A stretch of 64,000 nucleotides of DNA from sequence record PP418985.1. One strand, written 5' to 3'. A program made the position numbers and the translations under genes. This stretch comes from Escherichia phage UPWr_E1. Numbering within the stretch: the first letter of the stretch is position 1; each line of letters starts with the position of its first letter. Of the stretch, positions 12,061 to 61,226 are shown piece by piece. The notes beneath the pieces were generated by a model, which saw only the letters and a program-made list of their open reading frames with translations, had not been told where the DNA came from and did not search any database.

Positions 12061-12066
12061 TTTTCA

Positions 12067-12098
12067 GCCGATCCGAAAGGGTCGGCTTTTTCGTTTTT
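12067..12098 (+). terminator. intrinsic terminator after nrdD
   Basis: 8-bp stem GCCGATCC / GGGTCGGC with GAAA loop, then TTTTTCGTTTTT. Confidence 0.8.
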
Positions 12099-12103
12099 AG
12101 GTG

Positions 12104-12131
12104 TTGACAATCTTGTTAGCTCATGTATAAT
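12104..12131 (+). promoter_or_regulatory. sigma70-type early promoter (extended -10)
   Basis: TTGACA 12104-12109; TGTATAAT 12124-12131. Confidence 0.7.
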
Positions 12132-12163
12132 GCACATATCGAAAACAAAGAGAGGATAACATT

Positions 12164-12700
12164 ATGTTTTGTGTACTGAATAAAGAAATTAAAATTCGCA
12201 AGTTAGAAATTGGTGATGGTGTAGTTGTTAAAATGCACGCTAGCACACTGGCTAGCTTTGGTACAAAAGAAAGTTTCTTTATTATGGGAACTGTTGTTAA
12301 TATCTGCTGGAGTAAAGGCGAAGGCACACAAATCCGTAGTTTTTGTGTCGTTGACGAAGATAATAATCTGTATGTGATTCGCTATCAGAATCAATCTGTA
12401 TTGGTTTATACCGATAATTCACGAGAACTGTATACGCTGGACTTTGCTAAACTATGTGATTGTGATAAAAAGATTCAGGCGTACCACACAGAAGGCTGTT
12501 TTGGTGTTGGCGTCGAAGAGGAAGAGTACATCCCATTGGAAGTCGGGGCAGAAATTAAACATAGTGCCACGGATCGTATTTTTACGGTTGTTGCTGTTAA
12601 TGCAACTCAATTTGTAGCACAAGCACATAATACGGGATTCGTTATCTATGACATTGGTAATGCAAGTTCTCATTTTGAGGGCGTACAATTTCGTTTATAA
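12164..12700 (+). CDS. hypothetical protein (178 aa)
   Basis: Promoter 12104-12131; ATG 12164 after AGAGGATAACATT. Confidence 0.55.
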   Translation: MFCVLNKEIKIRKLEIGDGVVVKMHASTLASFGTKESFFIMGTVVNICWSKGEGTQIRSFCVVDEDNNLYVIRYQNQSVLVYTDNSRELYTLDFAKLCDCDKKIQAYHTEGCFGVGVEEEEYIPLEVGAEIKHSATDRIFTVVAVNATQFVAQAHNTGFVIYDIGNASSHFEGVQFRL

Positions 12701-13471: not shown

Positions 13472-13964
13472 TACATACGGCAAACTACGCTATGCCGATA
13501 TTAAAGATTGTGATATGGTTAACGGTGAGGGAGTGAGAGTCTCCCTTTACGTTACCGGATGTTCACACGCATGTGATGGTTGCTTTAATGCTAGCCTACT
13601 CAATCCTAAGAACGGGGAACCATTCACCGATGATACAATGGGATTGGTTTTGGATCTGCTTAGACCGGATTTTATTCAGGGGCTAACCTTCTTAGGTGGT
13701 GATCCGTTGTATAAACGAAATTTAAAGGGTGTACAACGGATCATTGATGAAGTAAAATCATGGATGCCAAATAAAGATATTTGGCTATGGTCCGGTTATA
13801 CCCTTGACCAATTGAATGATGAGCAAAGAAAAATTATAGAATCAGTTGACATGTTCATCGATGGTCGGTATATTAAAGACATGCCAACGAAGAAGCCGTG
13901 GCGGGGGTCTGACAATCAAGTACAATACAAGATTGTTGATAATATCCCAGTGAAAATTATTTGA
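13461..13964 (+). CDS. nrdG: anaerobic ribonucleotide reductase activating protein (radical SAM)
   Basis: Cys cluster CSHACDGC; size about 167 aa; track start 13455 is TTG, ATG 13461 preferred. Confidence 0.85.
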   Translation: MSSDTYGKLRYADIKDCDMVNGEGVRVSLYVTGCSHACDGCFNASLLNPKNGEPFTDDTMGLVLDLLRPDFIQGLTFLGGDPLYKRNLKGVQRIIDEVKSWMPNKDIWLWSGYTLDQLNDEQRKIIESVDMFIDGRYIKDMPTKKPWRGSDNQVQYKIVDNIPVKII

Positions 13965-14467: not shown

Positions 14468-14953
14468 ATGAAATGGGAAGAAGGTAAGACCTATGTGTTG
14501 GTTGGCGAGTACGAAAAGCGTATTTTGCGTGATTGTTGGCGTTACGAACAAAGACCTAATATTGATGGCAGGTTTACATATCTCGATAAACCATTTATTG
14601 TTGCTACGGTAGACCGTTGGGGTAATGTGCGTTCAATCTATAATCACGAAGGGGATTATATTAGTTCTATCGATATTGGTGATAATATATGGTTTTCCGA
14701 TGGCGACCGAGCGTGCTTCAAAGAAGTTTTATTACCTGGCCATGAACATGATCTAATCGATCTTCTCAAATTGGCGATGGATAATTATAAAATTCGTTTT
14801 GAATGCAAATCACATGCGGCTATCGGTGCTAACGCCTTGCGTCATATCTCCAGTTTTGAAGAGTTGAAAGATTTTCTTGACAAAATGCCGGAAAGAGTTC
14901 AAGCTATACAGGAAGCTGAGAAAGCGTTAAACGAACTTGATAAAATCGGTTAA
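14468..14953 (+). CDS. repeat-domain family protein
   Basis: MKWEEGKTY...DKPFIV...DRACFKEV; ATG 14468. Confidence 0.6.
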   Translation: MKWEEGKTYVLVGEYEKRILRDCWRYEQRPNIDGRFTYLDKPFIVATVDRWGNVRSIYNHEGDYISSIDIGDNIWFSDGDRACFKEVLLPGHEHDLIDLLKLAMDNYKIRFECKSHAAIGANALRHISSFEELKDFLDKMPERVQAIQEAEKALNELDKIG

Positions 14954-15799: not shown

Positions 15800-15800
15800 T

Positions 15801-16283
15801 ATGTTTGTTGTCGGTATGACCTATCAGTGGAAAGATAATAAAACGCGCGAAGATTTTACAAACTCTAGCGTTGCAAATGATGCAATAGCAGAGTTTATCG
15901 GCGACCGTCCATTTAAAGTTATTGCGTTTGATCACCATGCACCGGATATCGAATATGTTTCTGTGATTGAAATTGATGGCACGATATACACCTGCCGCAA
16001 TGTTGATGATGTACGTGAATACGCGCACAACTGGTTTTTGCAATCAGAAGAACGTTATTTTAAAGTGGTATCGGCAGAACTGACCACCGATGCAATGTTG
16101 GAACATTTTTTCAACAACTACGAAGTTTCTGTGCGTCGATATGGTGAAGAGGAAGTGTTTAAAATTGATGACTATAATCAATTTAAACGAGTATTTGCCA
16201 CTAAGTTACAGCATGATGTTGAACGCGAACAACGCATCAAGGAACTGGAAGAAGAACTGGAACGATTAAAGGCAGAGAAATGA
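15801..16283 (+). CDS. repeat-domain family protein (1 module + coiled-coil C-terminus)
   Basis: MTYQWKD...DRPFKV...ERYFKVV; ELEEELERLKAEK tail; ATG 15801. Confidence 0.6.
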   Translation: MFVVGMTYQWKDNKTREDFTNSSVANDAIAEFIGDRPFKVIAFDHHAPDIEYVSVIEIDGTIYTCRNVDDVREYAHNWFLQSEERYFKVVSAELTTDAMLEHFFNNYEVSVRRYGEEEVFKIDDYNQFKRVFATKLQHDVEREQRIKELEEELERLKAEK

Positions 16284-16549
16284 TCGAGGTCTACGGCATA
16301 CCTAAAGAGGCTTATCATTGTTATGGCTGTATCAATGCAATGAAGCTACTCGACGATCTGGGTATTCCGTATACACTTAAACCAGTATTCAAGCAGGTCG
16401 GGGTTGACATTATTCCCGACCGTGATATGATTGAAGAACTGGCGGGGAGGCTGAACTCAAAGAGCCTCCGATTTGTATACCCCCAGATATTCATTGACAA
16501 CGAGCACATTGGAGGCTATAAAGAACTGAGGGATATTTATGATTATTGA
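16280..16549 (+). CDS. nrdH: glutaredoxin-like protein (NrdH-like redoxin)
   Basis: CYGC redox motif, PQIFIDNEHIGGY C-terminus; near nrdG as in T4. Confidence 0.7.
   Translation: MIEVYGIPKEAYHCYGCINAMKLLDDLGIPYTLKPVFKQVGVDIIPDRDMIEELAGRLNSKSLRFVYPQIFIDNEHIGGYKELRDIYDY
16396..16431 (+). promoter_or_regulatory. promoter-like element embedded in the nrdH-like coding sequence
   Basis: Hairpin GGTCGGG 16396-16402 / CCCGACC 16415-16421 enclosing TTGACA 16404-16409; TGaTATGAT 16423-16431. Confidence 0.4.
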
Positions 16550-16697
16550 GAATTTAGTTTCGGTGTTCATTATTGCTTTATTTGCTATAATGGCTTTACC
16601 GTTGAAGACGTGTAAACACTGTAAAGGAACAGGATTGCGCGGTGATGGGTGTTGTGCTCATTGTCACGGATCTGGTAAAGTAAGTATCATTAAGTAA
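16539..16697 (+). CDS. small membrane-anchored protein with DnaJ-type zinc-finger repeats (52 aa, not in ORF track)
   Basis: ATG 16539; N-terminal hydrophobic helix then CKHCKGTG and CAHCHGSG (CxxCxGxG x2); embedded promoter-like element 16396-16431 upstream. Confidence 0.4.
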   Translation: MIIENLVSVFIIALFAIMALPLKTCKHCKGTGLRGDGCCAHCHGSGKVSIIK

Positions 16698-16718
16698 TTC
16701 TTGAGTGAGGAATATATT

Positions 16719-17006
16719 ATGTTAGTACACAATGCAATCGCACACATGGTTTACTCTCGATTTGGACGCATGGAAGAAATCAATATTACCGATGCAGATT
16801 TAGATCTGATGCAAGTCGAAGGCCAGACATATCTGAAAAATAACGGCGTGAATATCGGTAAAGCGCGTGTGCGTGAATTGTTGGTTGAATATATTCTCTC
16901 TGAATTTGGCATTAGTGCTTTCGGTGTGAAAGAGATTGCACCTAAGCGCGAAATTTCTGATAAAATGATCAAGAAATGCCAGAAAGCACGACGTAAGGGT
17001 TTCTAA
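16719..17006 (+). CDS. hypothetical protein (95 aa)
   Basis: ATG 16719 after GAGGAATATATT. Confidence 0.5.
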   Translation: MLVHNAIAHMVYSRFGRMEEINITDADLDLMQVEGQTYLKNNGVNIGKARVRELLVEYILSEFGISAFGVKEIAPKREISDKMIKKCQKARRKGF

Positions 17007-18475
17007 TGAAGATTGAAACATTAATCGCATTGCCAGCGGCGGGGAAAACTGATGCTATACTTTCCCACGTCCTAGAGACAAAAGAAAAAGCGGTTATTGC
17101 TTCGCCATCTCGTGTTTTAAGTGAACAATCTTACAATAAGTTTAAAAGAATGGGCGGTCGTGCTGTCTTGATTGATAGCACCAGACTAAGAAGCCTTAAG
17201 ACAGTGCAAGCGTCGATAATGCAATCAGTTAAAGATGGTGCTGGTGTGATATTCATTACACATACAGCGTTATCTAATATGGAGCGTTCAAAAATGTTTA
17301 GTGAATATGCTCTTTACATTGATGAAGTTCCTCAACTGGTTGAATTTAATGAGTATCCGTTTAAGTCTAATCTTGAACTTATCACGAAGCATTGCGAACC
17401 AATCGCCGACGAATCGGAATGCCTACAGAACTTAGTTCTAAAAGACTCTGAGAAGGCCGCTATCAAAGAAAAGATAGAAAGTGCAAAGGATGGTACTGAT
17501 ATGATCGATTCTTCTCTTAGAGGGCTTTATGAGGCGTTATTAGAGAAGAAAATCAACGTTATGGTAAAACATAACGAAGGACACCGGAAGAACGGGTCGA
17601 AAATTGTTTTCTTGAACGATAACAAACACGGTACGTGGGGAGACTTTAAAAAGGTTACGATAGCATGTGCAAATCTCTTTGATACATATAGTGGGAAGTA
17701 TCTACGATACTATGCAAATTGCGATTTTGTTCCTAGTGCGCTAGAATCCAGACTATATTTCAAAGAGTATAAAAATACAGATAGAGTTAACATCATCCTT
17801 ATGACGGACTCTGAACGATGGTCGCGTCACCAGTCAGAAACAAACAATACCTTTGAACGTCTTGTTGATATGGTTAAAAATGAATGTGGTGATGACTTCA
17901 TTTATACCGTGAATCGGGACCGTGAAGCGTGCACAAATGGTATTGGTGAGCGGATACCTTACGGATCTTATGGTCTTAACTCTTACATTCATCATAAAAA
18001 TGTTGCTGTGATGTTCAGCTTTAACCCTCAACGATGGGAGATTGATATTTTAAAAGGTCTTGCTAATAGTTGCGATCTCCCGACAAATGAGTTTTTGAAA
18101 GCGCGTCATGTGTCTGATTATCTGGAACCAGCATTTCAATTATGTTTGCGTTGTAACCTGAGAGACAACGAGAGCAAGGAGAATGTTAATCTATATGTTC
18201 CTGATTGGGCGTTGGTAGATTATCTAAAAACGTTTCTACCTAATGCCAATGTAATAACAGACCGAATGATTCCGCTAGAATGTGGTGAGCGTAAAGGGCG
18301 AAAATCATTTAAAAAGATGTTCGACTTTAACGAGCAAGAGAATGCAAGATTTAACGGATTTAAGTACCGCATGAAGAAAAAAGGAAAAACTCTTGATCCG
18401 TCTGACGGTGAATCAGTAGAGATGGTTAGAGTGTGGATAACTAAGCAAAGAAAGTATAATGGTAATGGGGAATAG
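17006..18475 (+). CDS. P-loop NTPase of unknown function (489 aa)
   Basis: Walker A ALPAAGKT near N-terminus, Walker B-like YIDEV; no T4 counterpart recognised. Confidence 0.6.
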   Translation: MKIETLIALPAAGKTDAILSHVLETKEKAVIASPSRVLSEQSYNKFKRMGGRAVLIDSTRLRSLKTVQASIMQSVKDGAGVIFITHTALSNMERSKMFSEYALYIDEVPQLVEFNEYPFKSNLELITKHCEPIADESECLQNLVLKDSEKAAIKEKIESAKDGTDMIDSSLRGLYEALLEKKINVMVKHNEGHRKNGSKIVFLNDNKHGTWGDFKKVTIACANLFDTYSGKYLRYYANCDFVPSALESRLYFKEYKNTDRVNIILMTDSERWSRHQSETNNTFERLVDMVKNECGDDFIYTVNRDREACTNGIGERIPYGSYGLNSYIHHKNVAVMFSFNPQRWEIDILKGLANSCDLPTNEFLKARHVSDYLEPAFQLCLRCNLRDNESKENVNLYVPDWALVDYLKTFLPNANVITDRMIPLECGERKGRKSFKKMFDFNEQENARFNGFKYRMKKKGKTLDPSDGESVEMVRVWITKQRKYNGNGE

Positions 18476-18515: not shown

Positions 18516-19049
18516 GTGTCTGATTATGTAAACAATAAAGAGCTTTACGAAGAAATTTGTCGTTGGAAACAACGAATTGCAGCCGAAGGTCGACAAGTGC
18601 CAATGAGCGATCAAATCGGCCTAGCAATTATGCAAATCTCTAAAAATCTATCACGGCGTTTTAACTTTTCTGGCTATAGTCAAACATGGCGCGAAGAAAT
18701 GATCGACGATGGAATCGAAGCGGCGGTCAAGGGTTTGATTAATTTTGACGAGACAAAGTATAAAAATCCTCATGCTTACATCACGCAAGCGTGCTTTAAT
18801 GCTTTTGTGCAGCGCATTAAAAAAGAAAGAACAGCAACCGCCGCAAAATACAAATATTTTGTGCATCATGTATATGACGAACGCGACGCTGATATGTGCC
18901 AGATTGCTGATGAGGCATTCATACAGGACATTTACGATAAGATCAACAACTACGAGGAATCGGTCAATAAACCGAAAGCGCCAAAGGTTGAAGATGTATT
19001 GACCGAGGAATTGCCTAGCCTGGACCAATTTTATGAGATTGAAAATTAA
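18516..19049 (+). CDS. 55: late-transcription sigma factor gp55
   Basis: Long colinear stretch with remembered T4 gp55 (FNFSGY..., [29 protein letters not shown]); GTG start 18516 after GAGGGTG. Confidence 0.9.
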
Positions 19050-19555: not shown

Positions 19556-19576
19556 TGGCTTTATAAGGGAGACTCT

Positions 19577-19600
19577 GAAAGGGGTTTCCCTTTTTATTTT
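19577..19600 (+). terminator. possible terminator
   Basis: Short GC stem around GGGGTTTCCC followed by TTTTTATTTT. Confidence 0.4.
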
Positions 19601-20671: not shown

Positions 20672-20700
20672 TTGACGCGGGGAGAAATCCCCGTTATACT
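20672..20700 (+). promoter_or_regulatory. early promoter with spacer stem-loop (type I)
   Basis: TTGACG 20672-20677; CGGGGA-gaaa-TCCCCG 20678-20693; TATACT 20695-20700. Confidence 0.75.
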
Positions 20701-20726
20701 CTCTAAAAAATTGATTGGAGGTTGTT

Positions 20727-20972
20727 ATGATTGCTAATGCACTGAAAGAAATCAACGAAGGTTTATCGAAATTCACTAAGATCCATGTATTTGAGGTTGT
20801 GCGAGATGGTCAGTATATGCTATCATTTCGGTCTAACTATGGTTTATGGACTCATGACGAAATCCCATTTGATCGTGAACATATCACCAAAGAGGGGCTA
20901 ACAAACATCGTATCCCGTAAGGTTGCTGATATTACCCAGAATGTGATTGCCCGTGAATCGTGGAGTATGTAA
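20727..20972 (+). CDS. hypothetical protein (81 aa)
   Basis: Stem-loop promoter 20672-20700; ATG 20727 after GGAGG. Confidence 0.55.
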   Translation: MIANALKEINEGLSKFTKIHVFEVVRDGQYMLSFRSNYGLWTHDEIPFDREHITKEGLTNIVSRKVADITQNVIARESWSM

Positions 20973-20973
20973 A

Positions 20974-21291
20974 ATGAAAACACTTGCACAAAAAGTAGTA
21001 GAATTTAATGCAGCTTTGCCTATGTTTGCTCGACGTAAGGGGATCTCCGTTGATGTATGGTATTCTAAAGAGCATGAAGAAGTTCGGATGATGGTCGAAA
21101 AGCGACTCACTGATACTACCGTTAAGTGTAAGATTCGCTCTATTCCTCGCGCGGAAATAGAATTTGATGAAAGCTATTATTTTACGCTACGTCATACACT
21201 GAAACAAGCAGTGGATGAACTTTTAGAAGACCTGAAACAATATGAAATTGAACGAGGAACATATTATGAATACGACTATGGTCGCGGCTGA
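20974..21291 (+). CDS. hypothetical protein (105 aa)
   Basis: ATG 20974 after GGAGT. Confidence 0.5.
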   Translation: MKTLAQKVVEFNAALPMFARRKGISVDVWYSKEHEEVRMMVEKRLTDTTVKCKIRSIPRAEIEFDESYYFTLRHTLKQAVDELLEDLKQYEIERGTYYEYDYGRG

Positions 21292-27549: not shown

Positions 27550-30228
27550 ATGTATTTTCTGTCATGTGAGCGAGTAGGTGATAAGATCTACGAGCGTTAT
27601 ATTGATGATGCTGGACAAGAACAAGAGCGTTACGTTGAATATACGCCAACTTTATTTCATCATGCCGCGCCTGGTATGGTTACAAATTATAAAGATATCT
27701 ATGGCAAGCCTTGCATTGCTAAAAAATTCCCATCTATGAACGAGGCCAACAAATGGCGTAAAAAGATGGGGGAAATGGGGCAAGAGGCACTAGGGATGGA
27801 TGATTTTATCATCTCCTATCTGTCCGATACGTATAAAGGAGAGATTCGATATGACCGAAATAAAATCCGTGTAGCATGGGTTGATATTGAGGTCACTGCC
27901 CCAGAATTTCCTAAACCAGAAGAAGCGAAATATCCTATCGATGCAATTACGCATTATGATTCCGTACATGATCGTTTCTTTGTATTTGATTTGAAAGGAA
28001 AAAACGGTGAATCTTGGGAAGCAAGCAAGTCTATTCTTCGCCCAGATATTGTAGAACGTGTTGTTTATAACGTCTATGATACAGAAGATGAATTGCTGTT
28101 AGAATACATCCGATTCTTTGAGGAAAACCGACCCGTTGGTTTCACTGGCTGGAACACAGAAACATTCGATATTCCATATATCATTAAACGTATCAGTAAT
28201 AAGTTCGGAAGTAGAACCGCTAACCGTCTAAGCCCGTGCGGTAAGATTAAATCCCGAATCTCACAGGATGATTTTGGCAACGAGCGTGAAGCATTTACGA
28301 TCATGGGGATCGAAAGCCTTGACTACATTGACTTATACAAGAAATTTAGCTTTACGACTCAACCAACATATGCATTAGATTATGTTGCTGAATATGAGAC
28401 AGGAATCGGTAAGGTTGATTATGATGGTCCGTTAAAGAAATTGCGTGATGACAACCATCAACTTTACATCGATTATAACATCGGCGACGTTGATCGTGTG
28501 CTGGCGATTGATAAAAAGCGTGGATTTATCGATCTTGTGTATAGTCTATGTTTCTATGCAAAGATTAAATTTAACCATGTTTATAACCCGATGAAAGTGT
28601 GGGATGCTATTATCTTCGGATCTCTGAAAGCTGAGGGTAAAGTAGTACCGGAAAATAAGATACAGCCTAAGCAGACATATCCTGGCGCATTCGTAAAAGA
28701 GCCAGTGCCTAATGCTTACCGTTGGATGATGAGCTTTGACTTAACAAGTCTGTATCCATCTATTATTCGACAGGTTAATATTTCGCCTGAAACAATCGCT
28801 GGATCTTTTGATGCTGCACCGATGCACGAGTATATCAATAAAACTGCACCACGTCCGAGTGATGAGTATTCTTGCTCGCCTAACGGATGGATGTATCGAA
28901 AAGATATTCATGGTATCGTACCGATTGAGATTAAAAAGGTATTCGATCAGCGTAAGCAGTACAAAAACATGATGTTGGCGTGTGATCGCAATGCTGAACT
29001 CTGTAAAGCGATTCTACACGATGAAAATCATGTTTATGGGGGAACCATTAGCTATAGCGTTGAAGTGCGTCACGACTTCGATGAAGCGTTTAAATCTATG
29101 CTTTCGGAATTAAGCAAAGATGCCTTAGAGAAATTGCTGGAAGAATGTAAAGACGAGTCGATCTTGTGCAATACAAACCAGCTTTCTCGAAAAGTTTTGA
29201 TCAACTCCCTTTATGGTGCGTTGGGGAATCCTAAATTCCGTTTTTATGATCTCCGTAACGCTAGTGCGATCACACTGTTCGGTCAGCTTGCAATTCAGTG
29301 GATTGAGCGTAAGATTAACGAATACTTAAACGAGCTTTGCGGAACAACCGATTTTGCATATGTTCGTTATTGTGATACTGACTCCGTTTATGTGCTGGTT
29401 AACAATGTTGTTGATAAGGTTGGCGGGGAAGATCGTTTCGACGATACCGAAAAACTTGTTGACTTCCTTGATAATTTCGGTAAACATCGAATGGAACCTA
29501 TTATCGACAAGGGATATCGCGAGTTATGCGAGTACATGAACAACTACGAGCACTTGATGTTTATGGACCGTGAGGCAATTGCTGGTCCTCCGTTGAAATC
29601 TGCGGGTATCGGTGGATTCTGGACTGGTAAAAAGCGTTATGCTCTTAATGTTTGGGATATGGAAGGAACGCGCTTTGCTGAACCTAAGCTAAAAATCATG
29701 GGCTTGGAAACGCAACGTAGCTCCACCCCTAAAGCATGTCAGAAATCACTGAAAGAATGTATTCGCCGTATGTTGCAGGAAGGGGAAGAATCGCTACAGG
29801 AATACTACGGTATTTTTGAGCAAGAATTTAGAAAACTTGACTATCTTGAGGTTGCTGCGGTATCATCTGCAAACAACCTACAGAAATACAGCGATTCAAA
29901 CGGGTATCCGATTAAGGGGTGTCCGTATGCGGTTAAGAGTGTGTTGTGTTATAATCGTAATGCTCGAAAATTCGGACTAGATCCGATTCGTGAAGGCGAG
30001 AAGGTTATGATTGTACCGCTTAAAGATCGAAATCCGTTTGGAGAAATCTGTTTTGGTTGGTTGTCCGGTACTCGTATTCCTCCAGAAATTGAATCAGAGG
30101 TGTTAAAGTGGTTAGACTGGCCTTTGTTGTTTAATAAGACTTTCGTCAAACCACTGGAGAACATTACCACGGCTGCAAAGCTGCAATATGAAAAAGTGGC
30201 ATCTCTTACAGACCTGTTTGACATTTAA
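27550..30228 (+). CDS. 43: DNA polymerase gp43 (family B, with 3'-5' exonuclease)
   Basis: About 892 aa; exo motif region, SLYPSII (pol motif A), DTDS (motif C); colinear with remembered T4 gp43; ATG 27550 after GTGAAGGAG; no intein or intron. Confidence 0.95.
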   Translation: MYFLSCERVGDKIYERYIDDAGQEQERYVEYTPTLFHHAAPGMVTNYKDIYGKPCIAKKFPSMNEANKWRKKMGEMGQEALGMDDFIISYLSDTYKGEIRYDRNKIRVAWVDIEVTAPEFPKPEEAKYPIDAITHYDSVHDRFFVFDLKGKNGESWEASKSILRPDIVERVVYNVYDTEDELLLEYIRFFEENRPVGFTGWNTETFDIPYIIKRISNKFGSRTANRLSPCGKIKSRISQDDFGNEREAFTIMGIESLDYIDLYKKFSFTTQPTYALDYVAEYETGIGKVDYDGPLKKLRDDNHQLYIDYNIGDVDRVLAIDKKRGFIDLVYSLCFYAKIKFNHVYNPMKVWDAIIFGSLKAEGKVVPENKIQPKQTYPGAFVKEPVPNAYRWMMSFDLTSLYPSIIRQVNISPETIAGSFDAAPMHEYINKTAPRPSDEYSCSPNGWMYRKDIHGIVPIEIKKVFDQRKQYKNMMLACDRNAELCKAILHDENHVYGGTISYSVEVRHDFDEAFKSMLSELSKDALEKLLEECKDESILCNTNQLSRKVLINSLYGALGNPKFRFYDLRNASAITLFGQLAIQWIERKINEYLNELCGTTDFAYVRYCDTDSVYVLVNNVVDKVGGEDRFDDTEKLVDFLDNFGKHRMEPIIDKGYRELCEYMNNYEHLMFMDREAIAGPPLKSAGIGGFWTGKKRYALNVWDMEGTRFAEPKLKIMGLETQRSSTPKACQKSLKECIRRMLQEGEESLQEYYGIFEQEFRKLDYLEVAAVSSANNLQKYSDSNGYPIKGCPYAVKSVLCYNRNARKFGLDPIREGEKVMIVPLKDRNPFGEICFGWLSGTRIPPEIESEVLKWLDWPLLFNKTFVKPLENITTAAKLQYEKVASLTDLFDI

Positions 30229-51317: not shown

Positions 51318-51346
51318 TTGACAGGGGATCGCCGATCCCCTACAAT
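51318..51346 (+). promoter_or_regulatory. early promoter with spacer stem-loop (type I)
   Basis: TTGACA 51318-51323; GGGGATC-gcc-GATCCCC 51324-51340; TACAAT 51341-51346. Confidence 0.75.
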
Positions 51347-61218: not shown

Positions 61219-61226
61219 TATTTATA
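61219..61226 (-). promoter_or_regulatory. T4-type late promoter (TATAAATA) for the gene 36-like tail fibre gene
   Basis: + strand TATTTATA 61219-61226 = TATAAATA on - strand, about 34 nt upstream of ATG 61185 with GAGGT RBS between. Confidence 0.65.

Follow-up and report, generated by a model that had tools for sequence, protein, structure and literature searches.

The closest described counterparts of the element analysed here are the promoter-early stem-loop (PeSL) cassettes of phages RB49 and phi1, about 51 (51-52) of which are known, each combining a strong sigma70-like early promoter with a stem-loop (Arbiol et al., 2010; PMC2839356). The stem-loops, often of a G-tract/C-tract type, are placed between the promoter boxes or overlap the -35 or the -10 box, and fall into five subclasses. 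Experiments showed one cassette to be a strong promoter in a reporter and one stem-loop to act as a terminator; GGGG...CCCC stems were speculated to be targets of DNA-binding or recombination proteins, and crossovers lie inside PeSLs (PMC2839356). Here, a 64,000-nucleotide (nt) stretch of Escherichia phage UPWr_E1 (PP418985.1; "the window") was analysed, which on sequence identity is an RB49-like Krischvirus, a T4-type coliphage of the Straboviridae. The subject is a promoter-like hairpin inside its nrdH-like glutaredoxin gene, upstream of a small open reading frame (ORF) homologous to RB49ORF046c (hereafter ORF046). By analogy, the element is a known type of Krischvirus regulatory cassette placed inside a gene, and we think it likely that it is a PeSL-type early promoter that would drive ORF046 and the genes that follow.

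The 5' ends of RB49 early transcripts were reportedly mapped by Desplats et al. in 2002. A published list of 51 RB49 early promoters was based on a hidden Markov model, and the matches were scrutinised for their position relative to ORF starts (Nolan et al., 2006; PMC1524935). In T4, the gap between nrdH and 55.6 (AF158101 41647-41804, - strand; 3148-3305 of L056) carries a terminator-like hairpin (GGGCCC...GGGCC, with a T-run) followed by an early-type promoter, GTTTAC-N18-TATTAT. The T4 unit has the same map position relative to nrdH and the 55.x-55 cluster, and the order of hairpin then promoter is common to both phages. In contrast to the Krischvirus element, the T4 unit lies in a 158-nt non-coding gap, its hairpin has a T-run, its -35 box GTTTAC is of the T4 type, and there is no ORF046 homologue between T4 nrdH and 55.2. 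Because T4 carries a hairpin and a promoter right after nrdH, the unit at this map position seems to be old and, in Krischvirus, seems to have been folded into coding sequence.

The promoter-like element inside nrdH

A preliminary description of this DNA had reported, inside a glutaredoxin-like ORF, a 7-bp inverted repeat enclosing TTGACA, followed 16 nt later by TGaTATGAT. All these features were recovered (coordinates in Table 1): the site matches the sigma70 consensus at 11 of 12 positions and has the TG of an extended -10 box, and the inverted repeat around its -35 box is perfect. The host ORF is glutaredoxin-like as described, with a match to Pfam PF00462 (Glutaredoxin; 24.2 bits, cut-off 22.9) and the active site C14-Y-G-C17, and it is annotated as nrdH in RB49. 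The element occupies codons 39-51 of the 89 codons of nrdH, and its -10 box ends 107 nt before the ATG of the 52-aa ORF046.

Like the PeSLs, the nrdH element has near-consensus sigma70 boxes (11/12 plus TG) in the same phage group and a stem-loop of the G-tract/C-tract type overlapping the -35 box, which is one of the five PeSL subclasses; it is also followed by a small gene that is annotated without function and is variable between otherwise near-identical genomes. The differences are in position and context. PeSLs are intergenic, between an upstream stop codon and the downstream Shine-Dalgarno sequence and ATG, they are AT-rich upstream of the -35 box, and the ATG follows about 30-45 nt after the -10 box, whereas the nrdH element is wholly intragenic, 45% AT in the 20 nt upstream, and 107 nt away from the next ATG. 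Intergenic sites of the window show the PeSL design exactly, for instance TTGACAGGGGATC-gcc-GATCCCCTACAAT at 51318.

The 2-kb stretch around the element is 93-97% identical to 58 Krischvirus genomes (RB49, phi1, JSE, GEC-3S, ECD7 and others). Within the genus, 26 distinct sequences were compared; the wider lineages were L053, L054, L055, L058-L061 (the P0004 lineage being among these relatives), CHB7 (L057) and T4 (L056). Useful diverged relatives were obtained by searching with the small ORF rather than with NrdH, and a search of metagenome and viral contigs for NrdH relatives at middle distance returned only near-identical Krischvirus sequences or glutaredoxins with at most 40% identity; the closest relatives of nrdH outside Krischvirus-type phages are likewise at most 40% identical.

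The -35 box, the -10 box and the TG are invariant across the 26 Krischvirus sequences and in L053 and L058-61; within Krischvirus the promoter region varies at one position alone, the indifferent "n" of TGnTATGAT, where a non-synonymous A>G occurs. The distant relatives have about 60-70% nucleotide identity to the nrdH of the window and keep the gene order glutaredoxin, small ORF, DUF7570, helicase. At the homologous spot, each spells a promoter with other amino acids: in the window, TTGACA-16-TGaTATGAT (11/12 plus TG) encodes V-D-I at the -35 and D-M-I at the -10 box; in L054, TTGACA-17-TATAAT (12/12) encodes V-D-N and D-Y-N; in L055, TTGACT-16-TGcTACAAT (10/12 plus TG) encodes L-D-F and A-T-I. 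In all three the -10 box ends 107-121 nt before the ATG of the small ORF, despite a nearby 6-nt indel. The promoter falls in a variable loop of the NrdH protein, so that nucleotides are conserved where amino acids are not, and random synonymous recoding retained an equally good site in 9% (window), 5% (L054) and 0.5% (L055) of trials. Because diverged lineages keep a promoter with other amino acids and against low recoding odds, we conclude from this comparison that a promoter at the nrdH spot is under selection, its activity being putative. The alignments thus give new evidence for upkeep of a promoter at the nucleotide level across diverged lineages, and an apparent example of dual coding: in a protein loop that tolerates change, the amino acids differ between three lineages and the promoter is spelled all the same.

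The nrdH site is one of a class. Counting every site of the window that agrees with the consensus at 11 or more of its 12 positions gives 28 on the + strand, which is the strand of nearly all genes up to about 54.6 kb, and none on the - strand. Sixteen of the 28 are intergenic and 12, including the nrdH site, lie well inside ORFs. As a null for the latter, synonymous codons were shuffled within every + strand gene (300 shuffles), holding proteins and codon usage fixed. The 12 intragenic sites compare with 1.9 +/- 1.2 expected, and none of the 300 shuffles reached 12; these sites therefore form a selected class, roughly five in six of which are owed to selection. Selection for consensus promoters inside genes, seen here for the window as a class, is a new finding. 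In 7 of the 12, the -10 box ends 79-111 nt before the ATG of the next gene, as against 7.7% expected (P 9e-6, an optimistic value because the interval was picked after the data were seen); 6 of these 7 are among the 11 sites other than that of nrdH. Only the nrdH element has a strong stem. The intragenic site at 13846, TTGACA-17-TATATT inside nrdG, is missing from the 2006 list of RB49 promoters, as is the nrdH site.

A reading of the nrdH element as a late promoter was discarded, since the window holds only one copy of the T4-type late promoter motif TATAAATA, far off at 61219-61226 on the - strand. Counted over both strands of the 64 kb, this single copy compares with 5.6 expected from shuffles; it sits at the start of a block of - strand genes, and the motif is apparently avoided elsewhere.

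ORF046 and its product

ORF046 encodes the 52-aa product MIIENLVSVFIIALFAIMALPLKTCKHCKGTGLRGDGCCAHCHGSGKVSIIK and overlaps the nrdH stop codon (16547-16549) by 11 nt. The preliminary description had noted an unannotated ORF overlapping the gene end; ORF and overlap stand, and "unannotated" holds for a few records only. The ORF is already known as an annotated hypothetical gene: it is RB49p046 / RB49ORF046c, is labelled "hypothetical" or "putative membrane protein" in most Krischvirus records and matches phrog_3931 (E 4.5e-9). It is present in all 58 Krischvirus genomes, with products 92-98% identical, and further alleles at 80%, 76%, 52%, 47% and 45% identity each lie directly after a glutaredoxin gene with start/stop overlap; five further lineages have their genes in the order glutaredoxin, small ORF, DUF7570, helicase. 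Conservation of the frame in relatives had been proposed as a check, and the comparison came out in favour of the gene. In the hydrophobic part, an in-frame indel of three codons separates the alleles, and changes at Cys and Gly codons are mostly synonymous. Variable sites fall on third codon positions in 19 of 32 cases (8 of 10 for the zinc part), and the ATG retains a Shine-Dalgarno sequence at a distance of 6-8 nt (AAGGAG in L054, GAGG in L055). Because the frame is conserved, a 3-codon indel is tolerated, Cys/Gly changes are synonymous and the Shine-Dalgarno sequence is kept, the small ORF is, on these alignments, a real gene under purifying selection.

The gene is also a variable allelic patch, because in L053 and the P0004 lineage the small-ORF region (about 16540-16850) is 64-87% identical to the window amid flanks that are 98-100% identical. 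The divergent patch spans the small ORF and the start of 55.2 (L053 5001-5300; L058-L061 1501-1668), and other divergent patches in those contigs correspond to window positions 12100-12700, 14500-14700 and 20700-21100. Outside this group, the Suspvirus phage CHB7 (MK562504.1, record positions 2431-2607, - strand; L057 2486-2662) has an unannotated 58-aa homologue with a transmembrane (TM) helix and CEHCDGHG...CPFCEGSGK; the deposited annotation calls another frame at that spot (gp2). Exhaustive searches found no named or characterised member of the family, and a PADLOC search with the small ORF and the genes beside it returned nothing meaningful. Apparent homologues from IMG/VR (L005-L010) were dropped, as they share only a CKHCKGTG-type motif inside unrelated larger proteins, some of them antiterminator Q-like.

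The hydrophobic N-terminal helix reported earlier agrees with a TM segment predicted at residues 5-22 of RB49 ORF046 in 2006 (PMC1524935, Additional file 2) and with an AlphaFold (AF2) model, in which residues 2-19 form a helix and two knuckles come after it (predicted local distance difference test score 81.5). The CxxCxGxG repeats lie at residues 25-32 and 39-46, and none of their four Cys and four Gly varies among 7-8 family members. Over all members compared, the invariant residues are E4, C25, C28, G30, G32, G37, C39, C42, G44, G46 and K47; P21 is invariant in the phage lineages with nrdH synteny and is replaced in the CHB7 homologue.

A family profile matched both halves of the cysteine-rich (CR) domain of E. 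coli DnaJ (1exk, E 2.3e-8) and anti-TRAP (3lcz, E 9.5e-5), and the best structural matches of the model were anti-TRAP (root-mean-square deviation 0.9 A over 29 columns), then DnaJ zinc fingers. By score, ORF046 fell below the gathering cut-off of PF00684 (DnaJ_CXXCXGXG; 14.2 bits, E 0.053, cut-off 32.7), and the best family member fell below the curated cut-off of the anti-TRAP model NF058604 RtpA of NCBIfam (22.7 bits, cut-off 65). Weak Pfam matches to Gad1, DUF5351 and zf-AtTam37 were rejected as sub-threshold and motif-driven. The earlier assignment of the two repeats to a DnaJ-type zinc finger thus held for motif, profile and fold, but applies to one zinc unit only, and at a sub-gathering Pfam score. 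On profile and model, ORF046 is a single DnaJ-type zinc unit, yet no member of PF00684 or of the anti-TRAP family; its putative zinc binding would follow from the four invariant Cys and the fold match.

ORF046 resembles anti-TRAP (RtpA of Bacillus, 53 residues) in size and in having one Zn(Cys)4 unit made from two CxxCxGxG motifs. Unlike ORF046, anti-TRAP is bacterial, has no TM helix and binds TRAP as a soluble trimer or dodecamer, and nothing hints at a TRAP-like target for ORF046. With the DnaJ CR domain it shares the CxxCxGxG signature; DnaJ, however, has four motifs and two zinc centres, placed between the J-domain/G-F region and the C-terminal domains, whereas ORF046 has two motifs and no J domain. 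The helix is preceded by an acidic N-terminus and followed by a basic stretch, which by the positive-inside rule suggests that the zinc domain is cytoplasmic. ORF046 would then be a single-pass, membrane-anchored protein with a C-terminal Zn(Cys)4 knuckle pair, equivalent to half a DnaJ CR unit as in anti-TRAP. Our best guess, held with low confidence, is that it is a small membrane-tethered protein-binding module, most likely acting at the inner membrane. The characterisation of ORF046 as a predicted TM-anchored, anti-TRAP-like zinc microprotein with allelic turnover is new, and it adds a small family joining these two parts in Krischvirus and Suspvirus phages.

Stem-loops and alternative explanations

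A -35 box enclosed by a 7-bp repeat, as in stem-loop 1, occurs once in the window and in none of 100 shuffles. The minimum free energy of stem 1 is -14.9 kcal/mol (z-score -2.0 versus dinucleotide shuffles), which ranks it within the top ~1% of the window's local folds of 45 nt. Its codons include rare ones (CCC, 3% of Pro; GTC, 10% of Val; GGG, 12% of Gly): recoding with the codon usage of the genome reproduced it in 0 of 5000 trials (P<2e-4), and permuting the codon set of nrdH itself gave P=0.024. The three positions of stem 1 that vary among the 26 Krischvirus genomes are all C>T and give G.U pairs. L054 has a different stem around the -35 box, with the C-rich arm first (z -2.1). Stem 1 was probably selected in the manner of PeSL stems, with a putative and non-essential function. 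As an intrinsic terminator it was ruled out by standard criteria, since it has no T-run.

Stem-loop 2 is made with the rare codons GGG, AGG and CTC. Taken alone it is not significant against shuffles (z -1.2), and the leader, taken whole, is no more stably folded than its shuffles (z -0.4); the 5'-proximal hairpin of L054 differs from it and is stronger (z -4.2). The terminator scan found a T-run after neither stem, and an Rfam scan of 15800-17200 at permissive thresholds found no known RNA family. A covariation test failed because the stems of L054 use non-homologous columns and L055 is stemless. GGAGGCT, which forms one arm of stem 2, has six copies in the window over both strands, three of them (one as AGCCTCC) within 72 nt of nrdH (16446-16452, 16463-16469 and 16511-16517); the clustered copies permit two alternative pairings. 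L054 has a counterpart trio (GAGGAAC / GTTCCTC / GGAGGAT) and L055 has none. The window, L054 and L055 all use GGA for the first Gly of the I-G-G-Y motif, so that GGAGG is kept 24 nt before the ATG of the small ORF.

Several results weigh against a working PeSL-type promoter in nrdH. The 2006 list has no entry between 12,270 and 33,299, the nrdH site would lie near RB49 30,143-30,170, and it was hence not predicted there. The 45% AT upstream compares with a mean of 68% for the 16 intergenic sites. Within Krischvirus, synonymous-site conservation of the hexamers (4 invariant synonymous sites) gave P ~0.4, a test that is weak because only 21% of third codon positions vary. No Krischvirus transcriptome was found. 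The hairpin is moderately supported (z about -2) and missing in one lineage, the fold analysis of the promoter and leader of L055 having found no stem at either position; the rare-codon argument for the stems is weakened because nrdH is rich overall in G+C at third codon positions (0.49, second highest of 92 + strand genes, mean 0.38). Finally, the CHB7 homologue lies just upstream of rIIA with no glutaredoxin nearby, so the link to nrdH is not universal. The promoter match might instead be an unused by-product of the amino acids and codon usage of nrdH, with the small ORF expressed by coupling from upstream promoters. It would fit this view that 9% of random synonymous recodings of the window protein still give a site of at least 11/12, that about two intragenic sites per window are expected by chance, that the site is not in the published list and that it has no AT-rich UP-like region. 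We nevertheless regard a by-product as unlikely, in view of the six-fold excess of intragenic sites, the strand asymmetry of 28 to 0, and the retention of the promoter in L054 and L055 despite other amino acids and an indel (joint recoding probability ~2e-5 if the lineages are independent).

The stems themselves may act on DNA or on RNA. As DNA, the inverted repeat could serve as an operator at which a dimeric regulator switches the promoter off; alternatively, it could be a favoured site of recombination, which has been suggested for PeSL stems. Its centring on the -35 region, the speculated role of PeSL stems in DNA binding or recombination with the crossovers inside PeSLs (PMC2839356), and the allelic patch just downstream in otherwise 98-100% identical genomes would suit such a role, which we hold to be improbable: the sequence occurs once in the window, so that there is no regulon for it; the patch boundary near 16540 is away from the repeat; the stem of L054 differs in sequence and polarity and L055 has none. 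The three stem substitutions also bear on the choice, as all create G.T, spoiling DNA symmetry while keeping RNA pairing. At the RNA level, stem 1 would attenuate upstream transcripts or mark them for processing, and stem 2 would be a protective 5' hairpin that sequesters an anti-Shine-Dalgarno-like AGCCUCC from the downstream GGAGG/GAGG. Besides the G.U-compatible substitutions, this is in line with the termination by a PeSL stem-loop in a reporter (PMC2839356), the need of both stems for the rarest codons, the strong hairpin of L054 at the 5' end of its putative leader (z -4.2) with an analogous trio, and the clustering of 3 of the 6 GGAGGCT copies. Several points make us treat an action on RNA as a possibility that is tentative at best: stem 1 is followed by no U-run and the terminator scan is empty there; ribosomes translating a long mRNA would open both stems; stem 2 and the leader fold little or no better than shuffles (z -1.2 and -0.4); and L055 lacks both stems. 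Moreover, there is no true covariation, because the stem pairs are non-homologous between lineages. Another alternative concerns the product: ORF046 might be a redox partner of the upstream glutaredoxin, a membrane-anchored CxxC protein reduced by the phage Grx or used by Grx at the membrane. Thiol-disulfide activity has been reported for DnaJ-type zinc-finger domains and plant DnaJ-like zinc-finger proteins, BSD2 is among the weak fold matches, and the start/stop overlap with the glutaredoxin gene is kept in six Krischvirus-type lineages. We doubt this partnership strongly: the CHB7 homologue without a glutaredoxin neighbour argues against an obligatory one, L053 and the P0004 lineage have swapped the small ORF next to a nearly identical nrdH, so the two genes do not co-evolve, T4 has nrdH and no such ORF, and four invariant Cys in CxxCxGxG more simply indicate structural zinc.

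The element, with its promoter preferred as functional, is solid but fairly ordinary phage gene organisation: the initial interpretation was largely right and less novel than it looked, and nothing here overturns current views of T4-type gene organisation. What we infer in preferring it comprises promoter activity, the start site, transcript extent, membrane topology, zinc binding and any target.

The putative transcription unit and its surroundings

With the promoter written into the variable-loop codons of nrdH, transcription by the sigma70 RNA polymerase of the host would begin near 16438, some 7 nt past TATGAT, and the 3' part of nrdH would serve as an untranslated leader of about 100 nt. 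The unit would then comprise ORF046, 55.2, the helicase-like gene, gene 55, a-gt.5 and a-gt.4, and run to the hairpin at 19565-19596 (Table 1). The terminator scan found no strong terminator between the upstream promoters (12104, 13248, 13846 and 14937) and nrdH, so transcription from the internal promoter would come on top of read-through, not in its place. Upstream promoters would thus also read these genes, and on such long mRNAs the small ORF would be translated by coupling, which is possible because its ATG overlaps the nrdH stop and it has its own Shine-Dalgarno sequence.

Table 1. Features at and around the nrdH locus of the window, with coordinates as window positions.
Feature	Coordinates	Strand	Basis or remark
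nrdH-like glutaredoxin gene, 89 aa, CYGC active site	16280..16549	+	ORF, Pfam, RB49 annotation nrdH; hosts promoter, both stems and the Shine-Dalgarno of the next gene
Stem-loop 1, GGTCGGG (16396-16402) / CCCGACC (16415-16421), 7 bp	16396..16421	+	Inverted-repeat search; 12-nt loop holding the -35 box
Putative sigma70-type early promoter: -35 TTGACA 16404-16409, 16-nt spacer, TG 16423-16424, -10 TATGAT 16426-16431	16404..16431	+	
Stem-loop 2, GGAGGCT/AGCCTCC, 7 bp, 10-nt loop	16446..16469	+	At about +9 to +32 of the putative transcript
Third GGAGGCT copy	16511..16517	+	Codons of conserved I-G-G-Y motif; complementary to 16463-16469
Shine-Dalgarno GAGG of ORF046	16529..16532	+	6 nt before ATG; uses rare Arg codon AGG of nrdH
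ORF046, 52 aa (RB49ORF046c homologue)	16539..16697	+	Predicted TM helix (about residues 2-22) and Zn(Cys)4 unit CxxCxGxG-x6-CxxCxGxG
55.2 homologue (DUF7570), next gene of the putative unit	16719..17006	+	Pfam PF24454 E 1.1e-28; RB49 annotation
Helicase-like gene, 489 aa, of the putative unit	17006..18475	+	Weak DEAD-box match
Gene 55 (late sigma factor) homologue	18516..19049	+	RB49 annotation mapped; ORF
First strong terminator-like hairpin with T-run downstream; putative unit end	19565..19596	+	
Other 11 intragenic sites (at least 11/12)	6859, 7332, 13846, 23640, 23758, 24658, 32654, 43800, 45758, 46647, 52562	+	Consensus scan

RB49-type phages are without the MotA middle-promoter system of T4, which raises the question of how genes such as gene 55 obtain enough transcription. 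RB49 has neither MotA nor middle promoters (PMC1524935), and the late promoter motif TATAAATA is absent from this region. The promoter scan found no site better than 9/12 between 16431 and the start of gene 55, so that, going upstream from gene 55, the nrdH-internal site is the first strong promoter-like one; with it, the region would gain a concrete transcription unit. Because RB49 has no MotA or middle promoters and no late motif lies nearby, it is plausible that an extra sigma70 promoter about 2.1 kb upstream of gene 55 is a way to secure its expression. A more speculative reading, which we consider quite unlikely, is that ORF046 founds a class of effectors: a membrane-anchored, anti-TRAP-like zinc knuckle would block a protein associated with the host inner membrane (for example a defence or exclusion component), turnover of the TM helix and linker would reflect an arms race, and the nrdH-internal promoter would uncouple ORF046 and gene 55 from nrdH in the absence of the MotA middle mode.

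The local gene order annotated in RB49 is nrdG, four ORFs, nrdH, ORF046, 55.2, ORF044, gene 55, a-gt.5 and a-gt.4, and the series from nrdH to gene 55 is also present in the window. The atypical codon usage of nrdH may come from overlapping signals or from a foreign origin. In the metagenomic relative L012, a 1-nt deletion in nrdH at about 1900 (~16459 of the window) cuts the product to 82 aa and parts it from the small ORF; nrdH is intact in the sister sample L011, and the deletion may be an assembly error or a real frameshift. Upstream in the window, the intergenic cassette at 12066-12131 is of the classic kind: directly behind a terminator-like hairpin of 9 bp and its T-run (12066-12087) comes a perfect TTGACA-16-TATAAT (12104-12131). 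This cassette corresponds to Pe:34495 of the 2006 list.

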